A program made the translations under genes and the position numbers. The notes under the pieces were generated by a model. That model searched no databases, was not told the origin of the DNA, and saw only the letters and a list, made by a program, of their open reading frames with translations. From the NCBI GenBank assembly GCA_050125095.1, contig JASFEA010000105.1:1-10861 (forward strand): a stretch of DNA of 10,861 nt. The letters are read 5' to 3'. This stretch comes from a bacterium (GTDB lineage Bacteria > Arandabacterota > Arandabacteria > Arandabacterales > JALGWA01). Shown in pieces: positions 2,151 through 10,861 of the stretch; position 1 is the stretch's first letter; every line of letters starts with the position of its first letter.

Positions 2151-2195
2151 GGGGTCAGGTCTGAAAATGCACAGTGCATTTTCAGACCTGACCCC
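2151..2195. repeat. Perfect inverted repeat with 22-bp arms (REP-like palindrome / possible terminator)
   Basis: GGGGTCAGGTCTGAAAATGCAC-A-GTGCATTTTCAGACCTGACCCC, followed by TGTTTT. It starts 10 nt after the rubrerythrin stop codon. Confidence 0.9.
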
Positions 2196-2212
2196 TGTTT
2201 TGCACAATCGCC

Positions 2213-2241
2213 TCGACATGCCCACCCCGCTGATATAGACT
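2213..2241 (+). promoter_or_regulatory. Putative sigma70-type promoter for ldh
   Basis: TCGACA (2213-2218), 17-nt spacer, TAGACT (2236-2241), upstream of a GGAG RBS and the ldh ATG at 2269. Motif match only. Confidence 0.4.
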
Positions 2242-2268
2242 CTAAGCGGACCCCACGGAGAATCGTCC

Positions 2269-3231
2269 ATGCCTGATACTGCACGTAAGGTATCCATCAT
2301 CGGCGCGGGCAACGTGGGCGTGAGATACGCCTACGCTCTCATGATAGAGAACACGGCCCGCGAGATAGTCCTGGTCGATGTCGCCCGGGACAGGCTCGAA
2401 GGCGAGGTAATGGACCTGTCGCACGGGGCCCCCTACATAAGGCCGGTGAAGGTGACGGCTGGCGACTACGCGGACATCAGGGGATCCGACCTCGTGGTAA
2501 TCACCGCCGGCGCCGGTCAGAAGCCCGGCCAGTCGCGCCTCGATCTCATCAAGGCAAACGTAGAACTTTACAGGAAGATAATCCCCGAGATAGAGAGACA
2601 TGCGCCCGCGGCTGTCTACCTTGTGGTCACAAATCCGGTGGACGCACTCTCTTACGCCGCCCACAGGCTGTCCTCGAAGCCGGCCCACGAGATAGTGGGA
2701 TCAGGTACGGTGCTCGACACGGCCAGATTTCGATATCTGCTCGGCAGACACTGCATGGTGGACTCCCGCAACGTGCATGCCTACGTACTTGGCGAGCACG
2801 GCGACAGCGAAGTTGCCATCTGGAGCCGCGTAATGATCGGCGGACTTCTGCTCGGCGACTACTGCCCGATATGCGACCGTTTCAAAGCCTGCGCGCGCGA
2901 GGAAGAGCTGGAGAGAGTATTCGTCGAGGTCCGGGACTCCGCATACGACATAATCGAGAGAAAGGGAGAAACGTCTTACGGCATCGGGCTGGCGCTAGTC
3001 CGGATCACTCGAGCCATTCTGAACGACGAAAACTCCATTCTCCCGGTTTCCTCGCTGATGCAGGGTTACCTGGGAATGGCGGACCTTTACTTGAGCATGC
3101 CGGCGATAGTCAACCGCAAGGGTGTCGAGAAAGTCCTTGAAATCAAGCTAAGCGGCCCTGAGGAGAAAGCCCTGAAGCACTCGGCCGAGGTCCTCAGAAA
3201 CGCGATCCGCCAGACCGGCATTGAGAGGTAG
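2269..3231 (+). CDS. ldh: NAD-dependent L-lactate dehydrogenase
   Basis: Rossmann motif IIGAGNVG. The substrate loop TAGAGQKPGQSRLDL has Gln (LDH) rather than Arg (MDH) at the specificity position. Also VTNPVD, GSGTVLDTARFR, catalytic LGEHGDS and IIERKGETSYGIG. Confidence 0.93.
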   Translation: MPDTARKVSIIGAGNVGVRYAYALMIENTAREIVLVDVARDRLEGEVMDLSHGAPYIRPVKVTAGDYADIRGSDLVVITAGAGQKPGQSRLDLIKANVELYRKIIPEIERHAPAAVYLVVTNPVDALSYAAHRLSSKPAHEIVGSGTVLDTARFRYLLGRHCMVDSRNVHAYVLGEHGDSEVAIWSRVMIGGLLLGDYCPICDRFKACAREEELERVFVEVRDSAYDIIERKGETSYGIGLALVRITRAILNDENSILPVSSLMQGYLGMADLYLSMPAIVNRKGVEKVLEIKLSGPEEKALKHSAEVLRNAIRQTGIER

Positions 3232-3236
3232 GAAAT

Positions 3237-3992
3237 ATGAATGTCTACCGGGATTTCGCCTATCTTTACATGAAGGGAGACTACCCTCGCTTCAGCGAAC
3301 GCATGGCGACGCTTCTGCCTCCCATCTTAAAGAAGTTCAAGGCCCGGCCGCGGACCGTCCTCGACCTGGCCTGCGGCGAGGGGAGCTTCGCGGTCGCCCT
3401 GGCCGGGCGCGGCTACGCCGTGACCGGCGTGGACAATTCCGAGGAAATGCTGAAGCTCGCCCGCGAAAAAGCCGCTCGCGCCGGCCACGACATGATCTTC
3501 TTGAAGCAGGACATGCGGGCGCTCTCGGTGGAATCGGGGTACGACCTGGTGACCTCCTGGTACGACAGCCTCAACTACCTGCTCAAGATGGAGGATCTCA
3601 AGGCATGCTACTCGGGCGTTCACAGGGCCCTGAACCCGGGCGGCCTGTTCATATTCGACATGAACACGGTCTATGGCCTGGGCGTCATATGGCAGCGACA
3701 GCCCTGCGAGGTCTGCCAGGACAATGAGGAGTTCTTCGAAATCCACCGCAAGGCATACGACTTCGAAACCAATATTGCCACTATGAGCATCACGGGTTTC
3801 ATAAAGACAGACGACACATTCATACGCGTCGACGAGACACATGAGGAGCGCGGCTACTCCCTGGAAGAGATACGCTCGGGTCTCAGGGGCTGCGGTTTTG
3901 AAGTGGCGGCCACCTGGGACAACCCCGCGACCATGTCGGAGCCCCAGCCGGAAAGCGGACGGGTCTGGGTCGTGGCCCGCAGGCCCTGCTGA
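3237..3992 (+). CDS. Class I SAM-dependent methyltransferase
   Basis: Motif I VLDLACGEG, VTGVDNSEEML, QDMR, DSLNYL, LNPGGLFIFD and C-terminal ETHEERGYS. It starts 5 nt after the ldh stop (probable operon) with a GAGG RBS. Confidence 0.9.
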   Translation: MNVYRDFAYLYMKGDYPRFSERMATLLPPILKKFKARPRTVLDLACGEGSFAVALAGRGYAVTGVDNSEEMLKLAREKAARAGHDMIFLKQDMRALSVESGYDLVTSWYDSLNYLLKMEDLKACYSGVHRALNPGGLFIFDMNTVYGLGVIWQRQPCEVCQDNEEFFEIHRKAYDFETNIATMSITGFIKTDDTFIRVDETHEERGYSLEEIRSGLRGCGFEVAATWDNPATMSEPQPESGRVWVVARRPC

Positions 3993-4059
3993 GCCAGCCG
4001 AGGTCGCCACGGCCGCCAAGACCGCCGCCGCCACTTTGGCCACTTCGCCCGCTTTGGCC

Positions 4060-4087
4060 TTGAGTTTCGGCCGCGATTCCCTATTAT
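4060..4087 (+). promoter_or_regulatory. Possible sigma70-type promoter for the membrane protein gene
   Basis: TTGAGT (4060-4065), 16-nt spacer, TATTAT (4082-4087), in an otherwise GC-rich intergenic region. Motif match only. Confidence 0.3.
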
Positions 4088-4130
4088 TGAACCCGGCCGG
4101 CGAACATGAACCCTTAGACGGCGGGACAGG

Positions 4131-5564
4131 ATGAACGCTGAAAATGCAGGTGGCGCCCTCCCGGGCTCGCGCTACAGGGCGCTGCTTAAGCCCGCAACCA
4201 TAATCGCGCTCATAGTCCTTTTCGCAATAGGCGCCTTCCACTGGGCCTGGTTCGTAAACTTCGGCGATGTGACCTTCAGGATCCACGACTGGGGGCAGGA
4301 GCATATCTACTACTCGGTGCTGAGACAGGCCGCCAACACGGGCAGCATACCCTTTCACATGTCGATGCGTTTTCACCAGACCGACAGGTTCATGTCCATC
4401 CCCGACACCAACTTCATGCCCTGGGTGCTCGTGCTGCCGGCGATGAGCGTGGGCAGGTTCATCATGCTGGACCTTCTCATCCTCTACGCCCTCGGATTCC
4501 TGGGATCGATTCTGCTCATGAGGAAGTACAACCTGTCCGTTCCCGCCTTCACCTTCTTCTTTCTAATATTCAACTTCAATGGCCACATCGTGGCGCATCT
4601 CGCAGTAGGCCATACGGCCTGGAGCGGCTACTTCCTTCTGCCGTTTCTCTTCCTCTTCCTACTGGAGATGCTCGAGGGCAAAGCCACATTTAAGACGTCG
4701 CTGAAGGTCGCCTTCATACTCTTCGCCATGATGCTCAAAGGCTCGTTCCACCTCTATACATGGTGCCTCATGTTTCTGGTCTTCCTCTTAATCTTCAACT
4801 GGAAGTACTCAAGGGCCGTGCTCGCGGCCATAGTCGGAAGCGCCTTGCTTTCGGCCTTCAAGCTCATACCCGCGGCCTACACGCTTCTCGGCCGCCACGA
4901 GAAGTTCATATGGTCCTACCCGACTTTCCGCGACCTCATCGACGCCCTCATTACGATAAGGGTGGAGTCGCCCGAGCGCCTTCGCTTCTGGGGCAACGCG
5001 GGCTGGTGGGAACTCGACATATACGTGGGACTCATCGGGCTCGCGCTTCTCGTCTACTTCGGCATTGTCCTCAGGTTCTCTCGCAGCGACGACCTCAGGG
5101 ACGTCAGATACGGGGCCCTCGATCTTCCCATACTCCTCATGGTGCTTTTCTCAATAAGCTACTTCCACGCATTCCTGACCAGGCTCCCTATTCCCCTCTT
5201 AAGGGGTGAGCGCGTCGCGACGAGGTTCGTGGTGCTTCCCGTACTCGCCCTGGCCCTGCTCGCCTCGTTCAGGATATCCCGGGTTCTCAGGAGGGTGGGA
5301 ATGAGCCTCAAGGCCTGGGTTCTCGGGATCGCGGTGCTTGCCGCAATGGCGCTCGGGTTCCTCGACCACTCCTTCCTGTGGTCGGTATCCCGCCTCGAGC
5401 GCGTAACGCAGCTTAAGGTCGAACCGCCCGTGCCCGGCCTTATCACGCGAGACGACGCCGGCTACAAGCTCATGGTTATCATCGGCATGTTGATAACGCT
5501 CGCCGGACTGATTGCCCTGGCCTACACCTTCATCAGGCCACGGCTCAAGAGGAATCCCGCCTGA
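4131..5564 (+). CDS. Polytopic integral membrane protein, YfhO-like / putative GT-C fold glycosyltransferase
   Basis: 477 aa with about 11-13 hydrophobic segments. The first TM is followed by a loop with an acidic residue (HDWGQE...GSIPF). FNFNGHIVAHLAVGH...LLP and a late RVATRF motif resemble YfhO-type membrane proteins. The CDS is secure but the function is inferred. Confidence 0.6.
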   Translation: MNAENAGGALPGSRYRALLKPATIIALIVLFAIGAFHWAWFVNFGDVTFRIHDWGQEHIYYSVLRQAANTGSIPFHMSMRFHQTDRFMSIPDTNFMPWVLVLPAMSVGRFIMLDLLILYALGFLGSILLMRKYNLSVPAFTFFFLIFNFNGHIVAHLAVGHTAWSGYFLLPFLFLFLLEMLEGKATFKTSLKVAFILFAMMLKGSFHLYTWCLMFLVFLLIFNWKYSRAVLAAIVGSALLSAFKLIPAAYTLLGRHEKFIWSYPTFRDLIDALITIRVESPERLRFWGNAGWWELDIYVGLIGLALLVYFGIVLRFSRSDDLRDVRYGALDLPILLMVLFSISYFHAFLTRLPIPLLRGERVATRFVVLPVLALALLASFRISRVLRRVGMSLKAWVLGIAVLAAMALGFLDHSFLWSVSRLERVTQLKVEPPVPGLITRDDAGYKLMVIIGMLITLAGLIALAYTFIRPRLKRNPA

Positions 5565-5576
5565 TACAGAGCAGCG

Positions 5577-6293
5577 CTATTCAGCCGGGACTTCGGCGGG
5601 CCTGGCCGTCGCGAACTCCCAGAAGTCGCGCAGGTACTCGTATCCGAGCGAGAGCAGGCGGCCCGCTTCGGGAACCCCCGCCTTCACAAACTCCCAGCCG
5701 CCCCGGTAGCCGCCCACGACGAAAGCGAAGATGAAACCGAACGCAAGCAGGCTCGCGAACAGGCAGAAGAAAAGCGAGAAGGCCCTGCCGCTTACCTTGA
5801 TATCACCCTGGTAGAACTTGAAGTCGATGATCTTCGACACCAGGTGGTAGCCCGTTATGAAACCCAGCACGGCGAAATAAACCGGGTATGCCGACTCCTT
5901 AAGAAGGGGGAATACCAGAAGCAATATGACGGAGAAGGTGGGGAAGTAATAAGGGGCGAGGTCCACGAGAAAGTTCTTGCCCCCGACCCGCACGTGGCCC
6001 CTGGTCGCGGTGGCGAAGAAAGCCTCGGGTTTCTGGAACATAAGAAGCCCCATTACGAGATGCGCGAACTCGTGCTCGAACACGCCGAAGAAACCCAGCT
6101 TCTTCCTGAATATCATCCAGAAGAGGGCCCCCGACGCGAAGCCTGTCGCCGCGATTCTCACATCGCCTATGTCGAGGAGGTCCCGCGCCATCATGGAGAC
6201 GATAACCGATGCATAGGCCCCGATCCCCACGGCCGATACGACCCCGACGATCACTTTGTGCCAGGCTGTCCCCGCCCTCTTATTATTTTTCAC
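5577..6293 (-). CDS. M50-like (Peptidase_M50B-type) membrane zinc metalloprotease
   Basis: HExxH motif (FEHEFAH, HEFAH at 6060-6074) inside a hydrophobic segment, then LAPYYFP, a downstream Asp (YQGDI) and several TM helices. The start is uncertain (GTG 6293 or ATG 6305). The ORF-track extension to 6404 is unlikely to be real. Confidence 0.7.
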   Translation of the reverse strand: MKNNKRAGTAWHKVIVGVVSAVGIGAYASVIVSMMARDLLDIGDVRIAATGFASGALFWMIFRKKLGFFGVFEHEFAHLVMGLLMFQKPEAFFATATRGHVRVGGKNFLVDLAPYYFPTFSVILLLVFPLLKESAYPVYFAVLGFITGYHLVSKIIDFKFYQGDIKVSGRAFSLFFCLFASLLAFGFIFAFVVGGYRGGWEFVKAGVPEAGRLLSLGYEYLRDFWEFATARPAEVPAE

Positions 6294-6303
6294 GATGCCT
6301 GAC

Positions 6304-6332
6304 ATTCTATACGCACAGGGGCCCGGTTTCAA
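6304..6332 (-). promoter_or_regulatory. Putative sigma70 promoter for the M50-like gene
   Basis: On the minus strand: TTGAAA (6332-6327), 17-nt spacer, TAGAAT (6309-6304). Each box matches consensus at 5/6 positions with ideal spacing. Confidence 0.55.
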
Positions 6333-6418
6333 CCACCGCAATCGCTGCAGGCCGACACCGACGGGCCTTAAAAGGGCCCCACCTTGCTGGCTTTTATGTA
6401 ACATGTTCCCCTATTTCC

Positions 6419-6448
6419 TTGATATTGGGGCTCTGCATGTGTTAAGAT
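6419..6448 (+). promoter_or_regulatory. Putative sigma70 promoter (extended -10) for the multiheme cytochrome gene
   Basis: TTGATA (6419-6424), 18-nt spacer ending in TGt, TAAGAT (6443-6448), in the AT-rich divergent intergenic region. Confidence 0.45.
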
Positions 6449-6561
6449 TGAGTTAATCGGGATGTACAGCGGGCTCTGTTAAGAGGCCAGGCCTACCAGA
6501 CGACTATCGGTTTATACCCAGGGGCGCTTCAAGGGGTAATTGTACCCAGGAGGGGATGTGA

Positions 6562-9219
6562 ATGAAAAGGAATAAAGCAGCTGTTGCTCTTGTCACCGTC
6601 CTGTCAGTCCTCATGCTCACGGTCAGTTCAGCCCGGGCCCGGAATCCCATCCGGAGAACCTTCTTCGACCAATACACTGTAGCCGAAAACACGCACCTGG
6701 ATGACCTCCCGAGCAATGCCGGCCACTGCGGTGTGTGCCACTTCGATTTCGACGGCGGCGGACCCAGGAACGCCTACGGTCTCGGAGTCGAGGTGGGGCT
6801 GGGGAACGGGCTCTCCAACCTTGACGCGATACTCGCCATTGAGAACGTCGACTCGGACGGGGACGGTTTTATCAACCTCATCGAGATTACAGACGTCATA
6901 AACTGGGACAATACGCCAACTTTCCCGGGGCTCTCGGCCGCGAATTACGGAAACGCGGTCAATGTCGACACTTCGGAGGTCGGCCCATACCTGACACCGG
7001 CGGGAGCAACGGATTCGATCCCGCCGGTCGTCACGGTGAGTTCCCCGAACGGCGGCGAGAATCTGATAGCCAACACCTACTATCCGATTTCCTACAGCGC
7101 GACCGATGAGGGAGGCGTCGCCTACGTAAACATCTACCTCTCGGAAGACAGCGGCGCCACCTTCAAGATCGTCGTCAAGAAAGCGGCGCCCGGCACCGGC
7201 TTCTCCTGGTTTGTGCCCCACAGGCCTGGAGCCGCGAGCCGCATCCGGGTCGAGGCCGTTGACGGCTCCGGCAATCCCGGCTATGACGACAGCGACGCCG
7301 ATTTCACCATCATCTCCACGGAGGCGGGGATAGTACCGACCACCTTAAGAGATATCGACATGACGGGAACGCAGCCCCTGGAGGGCGCCATACTGGATGA
7401 CCCCGATCATTCCTGCGCTACGTGTCACGGCAACTTCGACGAGGACGTCGAGCCGTGGTTCGTATGGCGCGGCTCCATGATGGCCCAGGCGGCGCGCGAT
7501 CCCTTCTTCTTCGCATGCATGGCTATCGCCGAACAGGACGCGCCGTCCGCGGGCGATGTGTGCATTCGCTGCCACTCGCCGGGCGGCTGGCAGGAAGGGC
7601 GCTCGGTCGATACCAGCGGCGGCCTTCTAAACGCCAAGGACCGGCACGGCGTGCACTGCGACTTCTGCCACCGCATGGTGGACTTCGATTACGTCGCCGG
7701 CGTGAGCCCGGCCATTGACGTTGCCGCCCTGGCCACGGTCGACCCGCTGCCGCTTCAGTACGGCAACGGGCAGTTCATAAACGACTTCAACCCCATCATG
7801 AGAGGGCCGTACTCTGACGCCGAGGCGAGCCACGCCTTCGTGGAATCGCCGTTTCACCGCTCGGCGGACCTTTGCGGCACGTGCCATGACGTCAGCAATC
7901 CGGTTTTCCTCCAGCCGGCACCGGGCGATTACGTGCCCAGCGCGTTCGACGCTCCGCATCCCGATATGTACGTACGCAACATGTTCCCGGTGGAGAGGAC
8001 ATACAGCGAGTGGTCGGCAAGCGAATACGCGGCCTCGGGGGTGTACGCTCCGCAGTTCGCCGGAAACAAGCCGGACGGCATGGTAAGTACATGCCAGGAC
8101 TGCCACATGCGCGACGTCACGGGCAAGGGCTGCAGCGAGTCAGGCGCGCCGACAAGAGACGACCTGCCGCTTCATGACATGATGGGCGGCAACATCTTCG
8201 TCGTCGACATTATCCAGAACTTCTATCCCGACGAGGTCGACGTCGCCCAGCTGCAGGCGGCCAAGGCACGGGCAGAACAGATGCTGGGACTCGCGGCGAC
8301 CCTGGATGTAACGCCCGAGGACTTCGGCGTGACGGTGCGCGTTACCAATGAGACGGGCCACAAGCTGCCCTCCGGGTATCCCGAGGGACGCAGAGTATGG
8401 CTCAACGTGAAGGGGCTCAACGCGGCCGACTCGCTTATCTATGAATCAGCCGCATACGACTTCGCAACCGCCGAGCTCGACGTCGAAGACCCTACGGCCA
8501 AGATCTACGAGGTGCATCCGGGATTCAGCCCCGGGCTGGCCTCGGCCCTGGGGATGCCGCCGGGCCCGTCTTTCCACTTCGTGCTGAGCGACACCGTATA
8601 TCACGACAATCGCATACCGCCGCGCGGTTTCACCAACGCCGGCTTCGAGGCCATACAGTCCCCGCCTGTGCACTGCTCGTATGAGGACGGGCAGTACTGG
8701 GACGACACCGAGTATTACATGCCGGCCGAGGTCGAGAGCGTGATAGTGACCCTCTATTACCAGTCCACCTCCAGGGAATACGTCGAGTTCCTGAGGGACG
8801 CCAACTACACCAACCAGACTGGCCAGAACCTCTATGACGCCTGGGTTGCCCAGGGCAAGGCGGCGCCGTTCACGATGGCCCAGGAGGCGGTGGGCGTCGC
8901 TGTAACTTCCGGCGTACCCGTCGACAGGCCCGACCAGACGCTTGTCTTCGCCATGAATCACAACGTACCCAACCCGTTCTCCTCCTCGACGGTGATATCC
9001 TATTCGGTCGCGAGCAGGGAACGTGTCAGGATATGCGCTTATGACGTTCAGGGCCGCGAGATATGCACGCTCATAGACGGCGTGCACGAGCCCGATCATT
9101 ACGAGATAAAGTGGGACGCAACCAACAACCGGGGAGAACCGCTGCCTTCTGGTATTTATTTCCTTCGGTACCAGGCCGGGTCGCATGTCTTTTCCAAGAA
9201 GGCAATGCTGATAAGGTAA
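6562..9219 (+). CDS. Secreted multiheme (6x CxxCH) cytochrome c with an Ig-like domain and a C-terminal FlgD-Ig/T9SS-sorting-like domain
   Basis: Sec signal peptide (MKRNKAAVALVTVLSVLMLTVSSARA). Heme motifs CGVCH (6727), CATCH (7414), CIRCH (7561), CDFCH (7657), CGTCH (7873) and CQDCH (8092). DSDGDG Ca-binding-like motif, PVVTVSSPNGGE Ig-like module and GHKLPSGYPEGRRVWL motif. C-terminal NVPNPF...YDVQGR...WDATNNRGEPLPSGIYFLR...KKAMLIR. GGAGGGG RBS. Confidence 0.92.
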   Translation: MKRNKAAVALVTVLSVLMLTVSSARARNPIRRTFFDQYTVAENTHLDDLPSNAGHCGVCHFDFDGGGPRNAYGLGVEVGLGNGLSNLDAILAIENVDSDGDGFINLIEITDVINWDNTPTFPGLSAANYGNAVNVDTSEVGPYLTPAGATDSIPPVVTVSSPNGGENLIANTYYPISYSATDEGGVAYVNIYLSEDSGATFKIVVKKAAPGTGFSWFVPHRPGAASRIRVEAVDGSGNPGYDDSDADFTIISTEAGIVPTTLRDIDMTGTQPLEGAILDDPDHSCATCHGNFDEDVEPWFVWRGSMMAQAARDPFFFACMAIAEQDAPSAGDVCIRCHSPGGWQEGRSVDTSGGLLNAKDRHGVHCDFCHRMVDFDYVAGVSPAIDVAALATVDPLPLQYGNGQFINDFNPIMRGPYSDAEASHAFVESPFHRSADLCGTCHDVSNPVFLQPAPGDYVPSAFDAPHPDMYVRNMFPVERTYSEWSASEYAASGVYAPQFAGNKPDGMVSTCQDCHMRDVTGKGCSESGAPTRDDLPLHDMMGGNIFVVDIIQNFYPDEVDVAQLQAAKARAEQMLGLAATLDVTPEDFGVTVRVTNETGHKLPSGYPEGRRVWLNVKGLNAADSLIYESAAYDFATAELDVEDPTAKIYEVHPGFSPGLASALGMPPGPSFHFVLSDTVYHDNRIPPRGFTNAGFEAIQSPPVHCSYEDGQYWDDTEYYMPAEVESVIVTLYYQSTSREYVEFLRDANYTNQTGQNLYDAWVAQGKAAPFTMAQEAVGVAVTSGVPVDRPDQTLVFAMNHNVPNPFSSSTVISYSVASRERVRICAYDVQGREICTLIDGVHEPDHYEIKWDATNNRGEPLPSGIYFLRYQAGSHVFSKKAMLIR

Positions 9220-9263
9220 TCGGACTGAAGGCAAAAGGGGTACTCGATCTTTCCAGGTTGAGG

Positions 9264-9309
9264 GAGAAGGGGCCTGGCCGAGCTCGCCTGGCCTCTTTCT
9301 CTATATATG
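9264..9309 (+). terminator. Putative intrinsic terminator / stem-loop after the cytochrome gene
   Basis: Imperfect GC-rich hairpin GAGAAGGGGCC...GGCCTCTTTCTC with a GAGCTC-centred inner palindrome, followed by an AT-rich tract (TATATATG). Confidence 0.45.
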
Positions 9310-9477
9310 TCCTACAAATTCGCTACGGCACCGCGGCAGCTCAGCGTTATTTTCAGTTTGCCACTTAACGATGAACGTCGCACATGGCATAGTTGACGCG
9401 GCAGGTCCGAAACCGGCATCTGCTTTGAGCTGCATCATTTTGACATCACCCTCTGCCGCTTGTGGAGATGATTGGCC

Positions 9478-9815
9478 ATGAGGGGCGCCTTGATTACGGG
9501 ACTCTCCCTGGCGCTTGCCCTCACCCCGATTCTGCCAGAGTCCGTGCGGGCTGAATGGGAGTACATGGAATTCGACGGCGACCTCGTCTGGGACAGCGCA
9601 TTCCGGCCGGGCCCGCGCCGGTCAGTCTGTGCGTCCGGGACACTTCAGGCAAGCTTGTCCGGCGGCTTCTGCAACTGCGAATAGCCACGCCCGAGTCCGG
9701 CATCACCTGGGACAGCAGGGCCGGTCCCGGGCGGCCGGTGGCTCCCGGTATATATTTCATTCAACTGGAGGCCGGCGCGGCGAGAGCCACCGGGCGGGTG
9801 GTCGTATTAAGATAG
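9478..9815 (+). pseudogene. Split remnant of a secreted protein: signal peptide in one frame, C-terminal sorting-like domain in another
   Basis: One frame (ATG 9478, GGAG RBS at 9464) gives MRGALITGLSLALALTPILPESVRA-EWEY..., a Sec signal peptide ending in VRA, and stops at 9684. An overlapping frame gives ...PVSLCVRDTSGKLVRRL...ITWDSRAGPGRPVAPGIYFIQLEAGAARATGRVVVLR*, a degenerate FlgD-Ig/T9SS-like tail lacking PNPF. Confidence 0.6.
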
Positions 9816-9878
9816 TCCGGCACAACCGAACCTGCCATAAGTTCAACAGGGAACTCCGCCGCCACATATGCGCGAACC

Positions 9879-10861
9879 TCAGCGCAACACCATGACCTTT
9901 CGCGTCGCGGAGAAATCGCCTGCCTTCATGCGTAAGAAATAGACGCCCGGCCCCACCTCGGCGCCCGATACGTCTCTGCCGTCCCAGGTCTCATGGTGCC
10001 TGTCCGCCGCCCTCGTCTCGTCGACAAGCTTATGCACCAATCTTCCGCCGACATCCAATATCTCGATCACGACATGCGACCGCTCGGGAAGATCGAAGCG
10101 AATCGAGGTCGACTCGGTGAAGGGGTTCGGAACATTGCGCCTCAGGGCGAAGGCCGCCGGGACACCTGCGTCAGGGACACCCGCGAAGTCGTTCTCAACG
10201 GTCGCCGGCTCGCCCTCATTGCCGGCAAAGTCCGTGGCCGTAACATGATAGAAGCCGTAGATCTCCCCCGCAACGTCCATATAGATGTCGATAGTGTATC
10301 CGATGAAGTCCGCCCCACCGAAATGGCCGTCATCCGAACCGTACACGGCGAAGTAGTCGAAGTCCTCCTCCGGCGCCTCCTCCCAGGCGATCTCGGTAGC
10401 CGAGGCCATGTGCAGGCCTTCGGGAGGGCCGGGGGCGAGGTTGTCCACCGAGTAGCCGCTGTCGGGACGGGAGTCGTAGTATACGGCAGGGGCCTCGCTC
10501 ATGGCCGAGACGAAGAAAACGGACCAGCATATACCGGCCGCGGTAGAATCGCAGAGCGTGGGCACGACGCAATTATAGATGGAGTCGCATCTTGCGGGCA
10601 CGCTGTAAACATAATCCCAGTCTCCCTGGGGAAGCCCGAGCCTCAGCAGCTCCTCTTCATGGAGCCGCGCCGCGCCGGACAAAGCCGTGTCGTCGATGCG
10701 GCGCCAGATGCCGTATCCGGTGACGGGGTCCGGACTCAGCACATCGTCGTAGTTGGAACGGTGCCAGGAGACCCTCACCTGCCTGCCCTGGTCGTTCCCC
10801 ACGTCGGCCACAGACTTAAGGATGGGCGAGCGTCCGATCGTCCTCGCCAGGCACGCGTCGA
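9879..10861 (-). CDS. Large secreted protein with a C-terminal FlgD-Ig/T9SS-sorting-like domain, 5'-truncated by the window
   Basis: The frame is open to the window edge (DACLARTIGRSPILKS-VADVGNDQGRQVRVSW...). It has FN3/Ig-like beta-rich modules (GYSVDNLAPGPP, YHVTATDFAGNEG) and the tail FALRRNVPNPFTEST...DVGGRLV...WDGRDVSGAEVGPGVYFLRM...TRKVMVLR*. Confidence 0.88.
   Translation of the reverse strand, partial: DACLARTIGRSPILKSVADVGNDQGRQVRVSWHRSNYDDVLSPDPVTGYGIWRRIDDTALSGAARLHEEELLRLGLPQGDWDYVYSVPARCDSIYNCVVPTLCDSTAAGICWSVFFVSAMSEAPAVYYDSRPDSGYSVDNLAPGPPEGLHMASATEIAWEEAPEEDFDYFAVYGSDDGHFGGADFIGYTIDIYMDVAGEIYGFYHVTATDFAGNEGEPATVENDFAGVPDAGVPAAFALRRNVPNPFTESTSIRFDLPERSHVVIEILDVGGRLVHKLVDETRAADRHHETWDGRDVSGAEVGPGVYFLRMKAGDFSATRKVMVLR

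Follow-up and report, generated by a model that had tools for sequence, protein, structure and literature searches.

A six-heme cytochrome with a pentaheme c552/MccSep-type core and a candidate type IX sorting tail in an uncultured bacterium

Introduction

Extracellular electron transfer is understood almost wholly from Shewanella- and Geobacter-type systems, and MtrC-type proteins use type II secretion. The known cargo of the type IX secretion system (T9SS) includes proteases, glycosidases, adhesins and gliding-motility proteins, and in our literature search we found no paper that links T9SS with multiheme cytochromes or names such a cargo.

The protein described here is related to a pentaheme (PHC) family whose only characterised member is MccSep/ExtKL of Geobacter sulfurreducens (9wt8). 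MccSep is described as a selenocysteine polysulfide reductase with a five-heme cap and an Ig-like stem, the active site being built from a loop of the Ig-like domain (10.1101/2025.11.18.688581); it is a periplasmic homotetramer, and 97% of its homologs are predicted to be periplasmic. The low-potential cytochrome c552 of Thermochromatium tepidum (5ZE8), a protein of about 400 aa, likewise joins a five-heme alpha-helical cap to a C-terminal Ig-like domain; a sulfur role has been suggested for it in work cited by PMC11976967. The same article describes a 'large PHC' group (Gsu2801 of G. sulfurreducens and the lPHC of cable bacteria), which resembles the present protein, by description only, in having a core larger than that of ExtKL or c552; the cable-bacteria lPHC are described there as carrying truncated hemoglobin domains and not a T9SS tail.

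Results

Gene and domain organisation

The window, by which we mean the whole stretch of 10,861 nucleotides analysed, holds one six-heme cytochrome gene, with the following features.

6548..6555, + strand: ribosome-binding site AGGAGGGG, 6 nt 5' of the ATG, read from the sequence
6562..9219, + strand: whole gene, stop codon included, for a predicted secreted hexaheme cytochrome of 885 aa; open ORF with ATG start
6562..6639, + strand: predicted Sec-type signal peptide, residues 1 to about 26, without a lipobox Cys
6643..7011, + strand: N-terminal monoheme domain, residues 28-150, with heme motif and acidic loop conserved in homologs
6727..6741, + strand: heme motif 1, C56-G-V-C-H60, from sequence and homolog conservation
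7012..7323, + strand: Ig/Fn3-like domain, residues 151-254, from a profile match below cut-off and a fold match of the model
7354..8286, + strand: PHC core, alpha-helical cap with its five hemes, residues about 265-575, from structure and profile matches to 5ZE8
7414-7428, + strand: core heme motif (CxxCH) at C285
7561-7575, + strand: core heme motif (CxxCH) at C334
7657-7671, + strand: core heme motif (CxxCH) at C366
7873-7887, + strand: core heme motif (CxxCH) at C438
8092-8106, + strand: core heme motif (CxxCH) at C511
8290..8898, + strand: PHC core, 'stem' formed by an Ig-like beta-sandwich, residues about 577-779, within the 5ZE8 match
8347..8394, + strand: most conserved loop, N596-E-T-G-H-K-L-P-S-G-Y-P-E-G-R-R611, from alignments to 9wt8 and c552
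8944..9216, + strand: candidate T9SS type-A C-terminal sorting domain, residues about 795-885, from TIGR04183, fold and motifs

The modules follow one another in the order monoheme/Ca-loop domain, Ig domain, pentaheme core and T9SS-type tail, and the AF2 model of the protein reached a pLDDT of 91.2. The Sec signal peptide named in the original prediction agrees with our reading of the N-terminus, which begins with MKRNK, continues as a hydrophobic stretch and ends in ...SSARA; in the model this end of the protein forms a helix, residues 2-37. A promoter-like site upstream of the gene (6419-6448) was not above chance expectation.

All six CxxCH motifs reported earlier were recovered, beginning at C56, C285, C334, C366, C438 and C511, and they are conserved among homologs, the five of the core being invariant or almost so across 95 aligned sequences. 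The whole genome has 12,344 six-frame ORFs with a length of 100 aa or more, and only 4 of them have three or more such motifs, so six in one protein lie far beyond chance. Forty-seven homologs possess the N-terminal domain, and 46-47 of them retain the first motif. This domain also carries an EF-hand-like DxDxDG...E loop (D97, D99, D101, G102 and E108), and conservation of H55, C56, C59, H60 and this acidic loop ranges over 43-47 of the same 47 homologs. It matched the GEGP diheme protein profile NF041762 (21 bits) and EF-hand chains (E 0.3-0.8) weakly. As a lead, its Atlas neighbours are small Temptin_C-type proteins. The Ig/Fn3-like domain scored 21.6 bits against Big_7, under the cut-off of 24.1, and its model matched Fn3/PKD-type domains over about 90 residues with Z 9-11.7 and rmsd of about 2.2-2.9 A.

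A pentaheme core of the c552/MccSep family

The core (model residues 275-779) superimposed on 5ZE8 with Z 24.2 and rmsd 2.7 A over 336 of 385 residues at 24% identity, the Foldseek E-value was 2.9e-15, and the cytochrome family profile matched 5ze8_A at E 3.8e-9. The core therefore belongs to the PHC family, that of MccSep/ExtKL and c552, and the six-heme cytochrome is no orphan. The beta strands of its stem span residues 579-778. The present protein shares with c552 the loop N-x-x-x-H-x-x-P-[ST]-G; c552, however, lacks the N-terminal monoheme domain, the extra Ig domain and the sorting tail, its core is about 130 residues smaller, and in the stretch W-x-G-S-M-H it has His where the present protein has Met307. 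Like the decahemes of the MtrC/OmcA type and the porin-cytochrome conduits, the protein is multiheme and probably faces outward, but it differs from them in having the PHC fold, in not being a lipoprotein and in having no adjacent porin or periplasmic partner. An assignment as an MtrC/OmcA outer-membrane cytochrome (PF22113; TIGR03507) was rejected: PF22113 matched residues 280-373 weakly (28.6 bits, cut-off 30), and the structural searches were led by 5ZE8 and listed no MtrC-type chain.

Apart from the motifs themselves, five conserved residues are candidate axial ligands for the five core hemes, assigned by conservation only: H424 (94 of 95 sequences), H538 and H600 (each 95 of 95), H672 (89 of 95) and M307 (91 of 95).

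The loop N596-R611 aligned with c552 in a profile alignment and with MccSep, in which the shared pattern is T-N-x-x-G-H-x-[IL]-P-x-G-[U/Y]-P. The alignment to 9wt8, itself weak (E 0.42), placed the selenocysteine (X) opposite Y606, making Tyr606 the counterpart of MccSep Sec325. N596, H600, G605 and R610 are present in all 95 sequences and E608 in 92, and the column equivalent to Sec325 holds Tyr in 84, Phe in 4, His in 4 and Met in 1, with 1 gap and 1 sequence unlisted; the five commonest letters given for this column include neither C nor U. We located no partner for Cys239, the distal ligand of heme 2 in MccSep, that region having yielded no alignment to 9wt8; the sole nearby cysteine outside the motifs, C524, is conserved in just 54 of the 95 sequences. 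The MccSep/ExtKL equivalog profile NF040886 reached 32.5 bits over residues 504-630 only, far under its cut-off of 250. As a tyrosine stands at the position of the catalytic selenocysteine, the protein is probably not a polysulfide reductase of the MccSep type. It also differs from the periplasmic MccSep in carrying a candidate export tail.

A large family with shuffled modules

Among 7999 scored sequences, at least 2379 were homologs at E<=0.001, near full length. A total of 915 cluster representatives were related at E<=1e-30. The best 120 homologs are 61-100% identical and almost all about 880 aa long. Named homologs include some from MAGs of Eisenbacteria and Krumholzibacteriota. In 30 representatives scanned, the core was fused to a PQQ-type GSDH (4), a plastocyanin-like Cu domain (1) or a lysyl oxidase (1), and to CBM96, malectin, dockerin and cadherin-like domains; catalytic and binding modules of these kinds are typically found in secreted proteins. 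The tail type switches at least 12 times on a tree of 94 cores, at least 7 of these being forced by supported branches, which fits an extracellular module that would have adopted the sorting tail of each lineage.

The C-terminal tail

The tail, preceded by a low-confidence linker (residues 783-791 of the AF2 model), contains the elements PNPF, DxxGR and GIYF and ends in ...MLIR. It had been proposed to score as a Por sorting domain, and this held in part: TIGR04183 gave 23.4 bits, a small margin over its cut-off of 23 (the six-frame search of the genome gave 27.3 bits for C105:8968-9201), and both PF18962 Por_Secre_tail (20.2 bits) and PF13860 FlgD_ig (20.6 bits) remained under their cut-off of 27. 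Many close homologs have precomputed matches to PF18962 or PF13860. The fold resembles the C-terminal domain of PorZ (5m11; Z 9.0 over 87 residues, rmsd 3.0 A), and FlgD (3osv, Z 8.8) and further beta-sandwiches reach similar scores, so that it fits a sorting domain without being specific for one; a match to PorU (6za2, Z 11.2) extends across two domains at rmsd 34.5 A.

Searched with a profile of 74 cytochrome-family tails, the genome yielded 171 matching ORFs, and the domain ends no more than 5 residues from the stop in 165 of the 167 of these that have a stop codon. Genome-wide, 146 of 150 scored TIGR04183 matches were above cut-off. The six-heme cytochrome is the sole ORF with heme motifs among the tail-bearing ORFs of the genome. 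The tail is kept in 75 of 95 aligned homologs, with the motif residues P803, P805, D828, G831, G864 and Y866. These features indicate that the tail is a sorting domain of the T9SS type-A class, an assignment that is marginal on TIGR04183. As in canonical Bacteroidota T9SS cargo with a type-A CTD, it forms a beta-sandwich of about 90 aa at the C-terminus, with PNPF/DxxG/GxY motifs, and SprA, PorU and PorV genes are present in the genome; the host differs from those of canonical cargo in not being one of the Bacteroidota and in that GldKLMN were not detected.

Secretion and heme maturation genes

Of the T9SS machinery expected from the original prediction, the translocon SprA, the sortase PorU and a PorV-family shuttle gene were recovered. 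SprA scored 501.2 bits (cut-off 200) and was found in all 18 phylum genomes, PorU scored 542 bits (cut-off 420), and an adjacent PorV-like gene scored 94 bits, under the NF033710 cut-off of 250; the homologs of the latter carry PF19572 and the NCBI name 'PorV/PorQ family protein'. The motor and ring genes GldK/L/M/N were not detected in the 91%-complete genome with TIGR03517, PF12081, PF19841 and TIGR03513, and the best TIGR03525 score was only 21.4 bits; the energising part of the canonical system is therefore unaccounted for. None of the 18 phylum genomes gave a match to GldM (PF12081). The GldM and GldN searches exceeded cut-off in no control genome either, two of these searches giving nothing in all 14; three additional genomes tried for GldM likewise gave no match, and the controls include no genome known to hold GldKLMN. 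The c-heme maturation genes that had also been anticipated are present as system II, with ResB and CcsA adjacent on contig C4.

Genomic context and possible electron routes

The cytochrome gene is flanked by a divergent gene for a membrane protein with a HEFAH motif and a convergent gene for a T9SS-tailed protein. In agreement with the absence of an adjacent porin partner noted before, no porin or second cytochrome gene was found in the window, which thus has no MtrCAB/Pcc-type conduit layout. A cluster of oxidative-stress genes (rubredoxin, flavodiiron protein and rubrerythrin) lies 4.4 kb upstream. In metatranscriptomes, 13 of 17 contigs from three runs mapped inside the cytochrome gene at 100% identity, a weak hint of its expression with a coverage that is biased because these runs were picked with the gene itself as query.

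The genome contains three multiheme ORFs besides the six-heme cytochrome. One is a five-heme PHC paralog on contig C108 (2523-3902, minus strand), which aligned with the six-heme cytochrome across all five motifs (E 8e-13). Directly downstream of it is an ORF of 398 aa that carries a single CxxCH close to its N-terminus and whose model has 16 beta strands and matches the 16-strand porins OmpU (E 1e-11), OprP, OprO and chitoporin. Judged from the porin fold and the single motif, it may be a Cyc2-like fused monoheme porin. Among the 18 phylum genomes, which include incomplete MAGs so that gene absence is not proven, 3 have the heme-porin, 7 the six-heme cytochrome and 2 (G000 and G016) both. No electron conduit across the outer membrane linked to the six-heme gene was found in the window or in the four multiheme ORFs of the genome, and the extracellular electron transfer role put forward originally gained no support from them.

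Discussion

The conserved six-heme protein is probably an outward-facing redox protein that would use a route undescribed for cytochromes. We give an even chance to the reading that it is exported with its hemes by a T9SS-type system and serves mainly as a multi-heme electron relay outside the cell. The pre-protein would reach the periplasm by Sec, where system II (ResB/CcsA) would attach six c-type hemes and the chain would fold into four modules; the type-A CTD would then be recognised by two components of a T9SS-like system, the PorV-family shuttle and the translocon SprA, the protein would cross the outer membrane in a folded state, and PorU would cut off the tail, so that the protein either stays on the surface or is set free. 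Outside, candidate partners for electron exchange, in whichever direction, include minerals, humics, sulfur species and further secreted redox proteins. Periplasmic heme maturation followed by folded T9SS export had been predicted at the outset, and the tail, the SprA/PorU/PorV genes, about 150-170 other tail ORFs and ResB/CcsA make it the most economical reading. The undetected GldKLMN and the marginal tail score count against it. That a T9SS-like system without a detectable GldKLMN motor carries the assembled cytochrome via SprA to the surface is put forward tentatively, at slightly under an even chance.

The relay is favoured over an enzyme with an open heme site because five candidate axial ligands are available and a tyrosine occupies the Sec position (84 of 95), and because the core is fused to modules of secreted proteins and switches its tail type. 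The same export could nevertheless deliver an extracellular or surface redox enzyme, with catalysis at heme 2 of the PHC core, Tyr606 and the cluster E608/R610/R611 replacing the Sec/Cys pair of MccSep, and a soluble sulfur, nitrogen or oxygen species as substrate. This we consider rather unlikely. The sole characterised family member is an enzyme whose active site comes from this very loop (10.1101/2025.11.18.688581), and the catalytic loop of MccSep corresponds to the most conserved stretch of the present protein; yet the conserved His and Met residues suffice for six-coordination of all five core hemes, heme ligation and propionate binding could by themselves account for the conserved His and Arg, and a counterpart of Cys239 was not located, the one nearby cysteine, C524, being present in just 54 of 95 sequences. 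The oxidative-stress cluster upstream would suit an enzyme, but its synteny with the cytochrome gene is confined to close relatives. It is improbable that the protein is a periplasmic cytochrome whose C-terminal beta-sandwich is a FlgD/Ig-like structural domain with no working export signal. MccSep and, by prediction, nearly all its homologs are periplasmic, GldKLMN were not found, two tail profiles are sub-cut-off with TIGR04183 just 0.4 bits over, and FlgD fits the tail about as well as the solved T9SS tails. Against this stand the occurrence of the tail class at the extreme C-terminus of 171 ORFs, the co-presence of SprA, PorU and PorV genes, the retention of tail and motifs in 75 of 95 homologs, and the surface-sorting or binding modules (dockerin, CBM96, cadherin-like) borne by relatives of the core.

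The heme-porin locus raises the thought that the cytochrome is the outermost link of a respiratory or iron-oxidising chain with the periplasmic PHC paralog and the Cyc2-like porin. Porin and paralog are paired in 3 of 3 phylum genomes having the porin, and Cyc2 homologs are reported from MAGs of Eisenbacteria, Krumholzibacteriota, KSB1 and Calditrichota in PMC9769843. We judge such a chain quite improbable, however, for the six-heme gene and the porin locus sit on different contigs, only 2 of the 7 phylum genomes with the six-heme gene also have the porin (among MAGs that are incomplete), G011 has the porin without the six-heme gene, and the tentative Cyc2 membership follows from likeness of fold and not from a Cyc2 profile. 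Least probable by far is an extracellular cytochrome filament like those of the archaeal AvECN nanowire subunits. According to PMC11976967, Baquero et al. 2023 proposed that c552 is evolutionarily related to AvECN, and the heme arrangement of the cable-bacteria sPHC, a structural homolog of c552, overlaps that of AvECN; the present protein, unlike the small nanowire subunits, is large and four-domained, with its own Ig domains and sorting tail, and no sequence feature suggests polymerisation.

If the relay with T9SS-type export is right, the substrate range of T9SS would extend to cofactor-bearing redox proteins, and uncultured FCB-related phyla would have their own way of placing cytochromes on the surface, and hence of exchanging electrons with the outside, distinct from the porin-cytochrome, lipoprotein/T2SS and nanowire routes known so far. 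The large, conserved and unstudied family of the six-heme cytochrome would then also be a marker of outward-facing redox chemistry in abundant uncultured bacteria of sediments and wetlands. The analysis further defines a Tyr-type branch within a pentaheme family in which the one member characterised so far is a selenoenzyme.

Gene, reading frame and expression

P0001, the cytochrome analysed here, joins two known kinds of protein, the pentaheme cytochrome (PHC) fold family and the cargo of type IX secretion (T9SS), an interesting combination whose export and function we infer. We found no paper tying type IX or Por secretion to multiheme cytochromes or to extracellular electron transfer, and among the papers listed for the candidate phyla none mentioning type IX secretion. 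Secreted multiheme cytochromes have been predicted in Bacteroidota MAGs, with T9SS going unmentioned in the part of that paper considered here (PMC11495043).

The genome comprises 3.35 Mb in 268 contigs (91% complete, 60% G+C), of which the window is one entire contig of 10,861 bp. The P0001 gene is an open frame at 6562-9219(+) with an ATG start, a AGGAGGGG site six bases 5' of it and a product of 885 aa whose N-terminus reads as signal-type sequence, basic then hydrophobic and free of a lipobox cysteine. The CxxCH motifs start at C56, C285, C334, C366, C438 and C511; the five of the core vary little or not at all across 95 aligned homologs, and 46-47 of the 47 homologs with the N-terminal domain retain the first (C56). 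Three or more such motifs occur in just 4 of the genome's 12,344 six-frame ORFs with a length of 100 aa or more. What the original prediction noticed in the sequence is real and far beyond chance.

Three wetland metatranscriptome runs from two studies contained short contigs identical to the window, 13 of 17 lying inside the P0001 gene, and one DNA run covered all 30 bins. This gives a weak hint of transcription, weak because the runs were found with the P0001 gene as query and the data are contigs; for the same reasons the RNA-free stretch 2179-6534 is not evidence of silence.

Genomic neighbourhood

The P0001 gene is on its own: its neighbours are a membrane-protein gene that diverges from it and a T9SS-tailed gene that converges on it. 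This bears out the earlier remark that no porin gene is adjacent. The other features of the window are:

1-330: rubredoxin-domain ORF, cut at the contig end
437-1651: flavodiiron protein, its flavorubredoxin-like score of 242 bits lying under the equivalog cut-off
1664-2140: rubrerythrin-like protein
2269-3231: malate/lactate dehydrogenase, after the rubrerythrin-like ORF
3237-3992: SAM methyltransferase, after the dehydrogenase
4131-5564 (+): polytopic membrane protein, no family match
5577-6404 (-): polytopic membrane protein with a HEFAH metalloprotease-like motif, no family match
9879-10859 (-): convergent T9SS-tailed neighbour, truncated by the contig end (TIGR04183, 31.3 bits)

The stretch 1-2140 is an oxygen/NO-defence cluster typical of anaerobes, and synteny of the two membrane-protein genes with that for the cytochrome is confined to close relatives. 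At loci of two relatives (L021, 2350-8137; L022, 9354-14654) the T9SS-tailed neighbour forms a tandem array of three paralogs of ~705-720 aa where complete, and a DNA contig of run X1 holds a divergent copy of it over 9897-10137. The ~660 bp between the convergent genes (9220-9878) contain no ORF but an Arg-rich one (9515-9895) that is probably spurious, and one RNA-library contig maps to 9340-9550. An Rfam search of the window returned no family, and promoter and terminator scans of it, hairpins at 9276-9293 and 9734-9749 included, gave nothing above chance.

Module architecture and fold

Through its structural model and searches, P0001 was resolved into four modules, all on the (+) strand:

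residues 28-150 (6643-7011): monoheme domain, with an EF-hand-like DxDxDG...E loop kept in 43-47 of 47 homologs
residues 151-254: Ig/Fn3-like domain, structural match Z 9-11.7
residues 275-779: pentaheme core, matching 5ZE8
residues ~795-885: sorting tail, by TIGR04183 and the model

The core was matched by Foldseek to the pentaheme cytochrome c552 of Thermochromatium tepidum (5ZE8, E 2.9e-15), and VIA-align superposed 336 of 385 residues at Z 24.2 and rmsd 2.7 A with 24% identity. The family profile also finds 5ZE8 by sequence (E 3.8e-9); a single-sequence search of PDB sequences with P0001 gave nothing significant. Cytochrome c552 is described as belonging to one fold family with the PHC proteins, which have a five-heme helical cap and an Ig-like stem (PMC11976967; 10.1101/2025.11.18.688581), and a weak NF040886 match (32.5 bits) fits the placement of P0001 among them. 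Free-standing proteins of 110-170 aa look similar to the monoheme/Ca-loop domain, but only as Atlas leads (scores 0.91-0.94); they come from Deinococcota, Latescibacterota and others, and some of the clusters are labelled Temptin_C or carry TSP3_bac.

Sorting tail and secretion machinery

The C-terminal domain, which had been taken for a type IX sorting signal, is recognised by TIGR04183, marginally (23.4 bits against a cut-off of 23; 27.3 bits in a six-frame genome search), and falls below the Pfam cut-offs of 27 for both PF18962 (20.2) and PF13860 (20.6). The assignment is firmer than this marginal score suggests because of three further results. When 74 tails of the P0001 cytochrome family are made into a profile, it matches 171 ORFs of the genome, ending at most 5 residues from the stop in 165 of the 167 that are stop-ended. 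TIGR04183 itself scores 150 places in the genome, 146 of them above its cut-off, and exceeds the cut-off in 0 of 14 control genomes. The AF2 model of P0001 (pLDDT 91.2) has a disordered linker (783-791) followed by a beta-sandwich tail, which matches the solved PorZ tail (5m11, Z 9.0), with FlgD about equal (Z 8.8). Tail-bearing ORFs number about 150-170 in the genome, and P0001 is the sole CxxCH-bearing ORF among the 171.

Contigs C2 and C39 of the genome encode parts of the secretion machinery:

C2:412-6450 (-): SprA translocon, 501 bits, in a 2025-aa frame
C39:13528-18531 (+): region of the PorU sortase and a PorV-family protein, by profile matches

PorU scores 542 bits, and the gene directly 3' of porU encodes a 335-aa PorV-family protein that reaches 94 bits, under the NF033710 cut-off, its homologs carrying PF19572 and the NCBI name PorV/PorQ family. 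SprA occurs in all 18 phylum genomes, scoring above the cut-off in 17. A lack of type IX machinery, named in the original prediction as refuting it, is not what the genome shows, though only the outer-membrane part was found, the motor and ring proteins GldK/L/M/N going undetected. GldM (two models), GldN and GldL had no match in this 91%-complete genome, the GldK model reached 21 bits at most, and GldM_1st matched 0 of 18 phylum genomes. As the GldM and GldN models exceeded their cut-offs in no control genome (GldM also in 0 of 3 extra genomes), so that there was no positive control, these proteins are to be called not detected in the lineage, as distinct from absent. The T9SS of this lineage may be a variant energised differently, or the Gld models may be too narrow. 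For heme maturation, a check that had been proposed alongside, the genes for ResB and CcsA (system II heme attachment) were found side by side.

Candidate electron partners

Gene order yielded no conserved partner, synteny being limited to close kin at 81-92% identity, and inspection of five loci with distant core homologs (L012-L016) showed no common neighbour. Besides P0001 there are three multiheme ORFs in the genome, among them a PHC paralog that is followed by a candidate heme-porin on contig C108:

C108 (L044):2523-3902 (-): PHC paralog of 459 aa lacking the tail, aligning over all five motifs (E 8e-13)
C108:1274-2470 (-): 398-aa heme-porin ORF directly downstream, with one CxxCH near its N-terminus

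The paralog has Ser at the position of the MccSep selenocysteine, gave no match to MccSep and was assigned to the periplasm. The 398-aa ORF has no Pfam or NCBIfam match; its model has 16 strands and matches the 16-strand porins OmpU (E 1e-11), OprP and OprO, by which it is predicted to be a Cyc2-like fused cytochrome-porin architecture. It has at least 4773 homologs, in Eisenbacteria, Krumholzibacteriota, KSB1, Latescibacteria and Calditrichia. All three phylum genomes with the porin retain the pair. As the porin is found in 3 of 18 phylum genomes and the six-heme gene in 7 (five full-length, two in pieces at contig ends), with an overlap of 2 genomes, the heme-porin could partner P0001 only occasionally, if it does so at all.

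Two tetraheme ORFs with c554-like spacing lie at C87:9413-10627(+) and C20:25487-26062(+), one of them behind a ~290-aa N-terminal non-heme region. A PQQ-dehydrogenase donor, suggested by fusions in the family, was rejected, GSDH being found in 0 of 3 genus genomes (the control gave matches in 6). An ExtI-like OprO/P porin was also considered, for which a Porin_O_P match exists at C1:57182-57670, but the region C1:49000-66000 around it contains no multiheme ORF. With no partner by gene order, an occasional porin and no GSDH in the genus, it is the electron path to a surface-exposed P0001 that most weakens the extracellular-electron-transfer reading.

Proposed role and alternatives

We give roughly even chances to the reading of P0001 as a PHC hexaheme cytochrome that would be exported by Sec and then loaded with heme by system II, would be moved across the outer membrane by a SprA/PorV/PorU-type system via its type-A tail, and would serve outside the cell as an electron relay. 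Among its rivals, a periplasmic resident seems improbable, a place for P0001 at the outer end of an electron chain that includes the Cyc2-like porin is slightly more so, and a filament subunit is highly improbable.

More weight, though still on the unlikely side, belongs to an extracellular PHC enzyme of a Tyr type. The family includes an enzyme, ExtKL/MccSep of Geobacter, a periplasmic, tetrameric, selenocysteine-dependent polysulfide reductase (10.1101/2025.11.18.688581). The P0001 loop T-N-E-T-G-H-K-L-P-S-G-Y-P aligns with the Sec325-bearing loop of MccSep (E 0.42, weak alone), and the same loop motif is aligned within the significant c552 match; where MccSep has Sec325, however, P0001 has Tyr606, kept in 84 of 95 homologs. 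No counterpart of the heme-ligating Cys239 of MccSep was located, residues 470-570 giving no MccSep alignment, and the sole cysteine near the expected position is kept in 54 of 95 sequences. Judged by sequence, P0001 is not a MccSep-type enzyme. Conserved non-motif candidate distal ligands, H424, H538, H600, H672 and M307, suffice for all five core hemes, c552 having His at the position held by M307. Since these five residues could ligate, six-coordinate, electron-transferring core hemes are favoured, a judgement made from conservation rather than from coordinates or hemes, and one in keeping with the relay reading.

Distribution and modularity of the family

P0001 has at least 2379 near-length homologs, the best 120 at 61-100% identity; those named at NCBI are called 'T9SS type A sorting domain-containing protein' and come from Eisenbacteria and Krumholzibacteriota MAGs. 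Distant core homologs (32-37% identity) occur in Actinomycetota, Planctomycetota, Ignavibacteriae and Deltaproteobacteria MAGs. Clustered at 50%, the matches at E<=1e-30 comprise 915 representatives. Among 93 representatives with at least 80% of the core, this tail is present in 21, the N-terminal monoheme domain in 9 and both in 3. In an IQ-TREE phylogeny of 94 cores (FastTree was also built), explaining the tail labels takes a minimum of 12 changes, no fewer than 7 of which supported branches make unavoidable, and P0001 is sister to a protein with a different tail (SH-aLRT 99).

A Pfam scan of 30 representatives found four in which the core is joined to PQQ-type GSDH, one with a plastocyanin-like domain and one with lysyl oxidase; other modules fused to it were of the CBM96, malectin, dockerin, cadherin-like and beta-helix types. 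In other lineages, the representatives P0131, P0167, P0169, P0201, P0135 and P0181 have the core fused to a PQQ-type glucose/sorbosone dehydrogenase, plastocyanin-like copper or lysyl-oxidase domain; such proteins would unite, by natural fusion, an extracellular oxidoreductase and a multi-heme relay. Fused to an oxidoreductase, the core looks like the electron-relay part, and the picture is that of an extracellular redox module acquiring each lineage's own sorting or anchoring tail.
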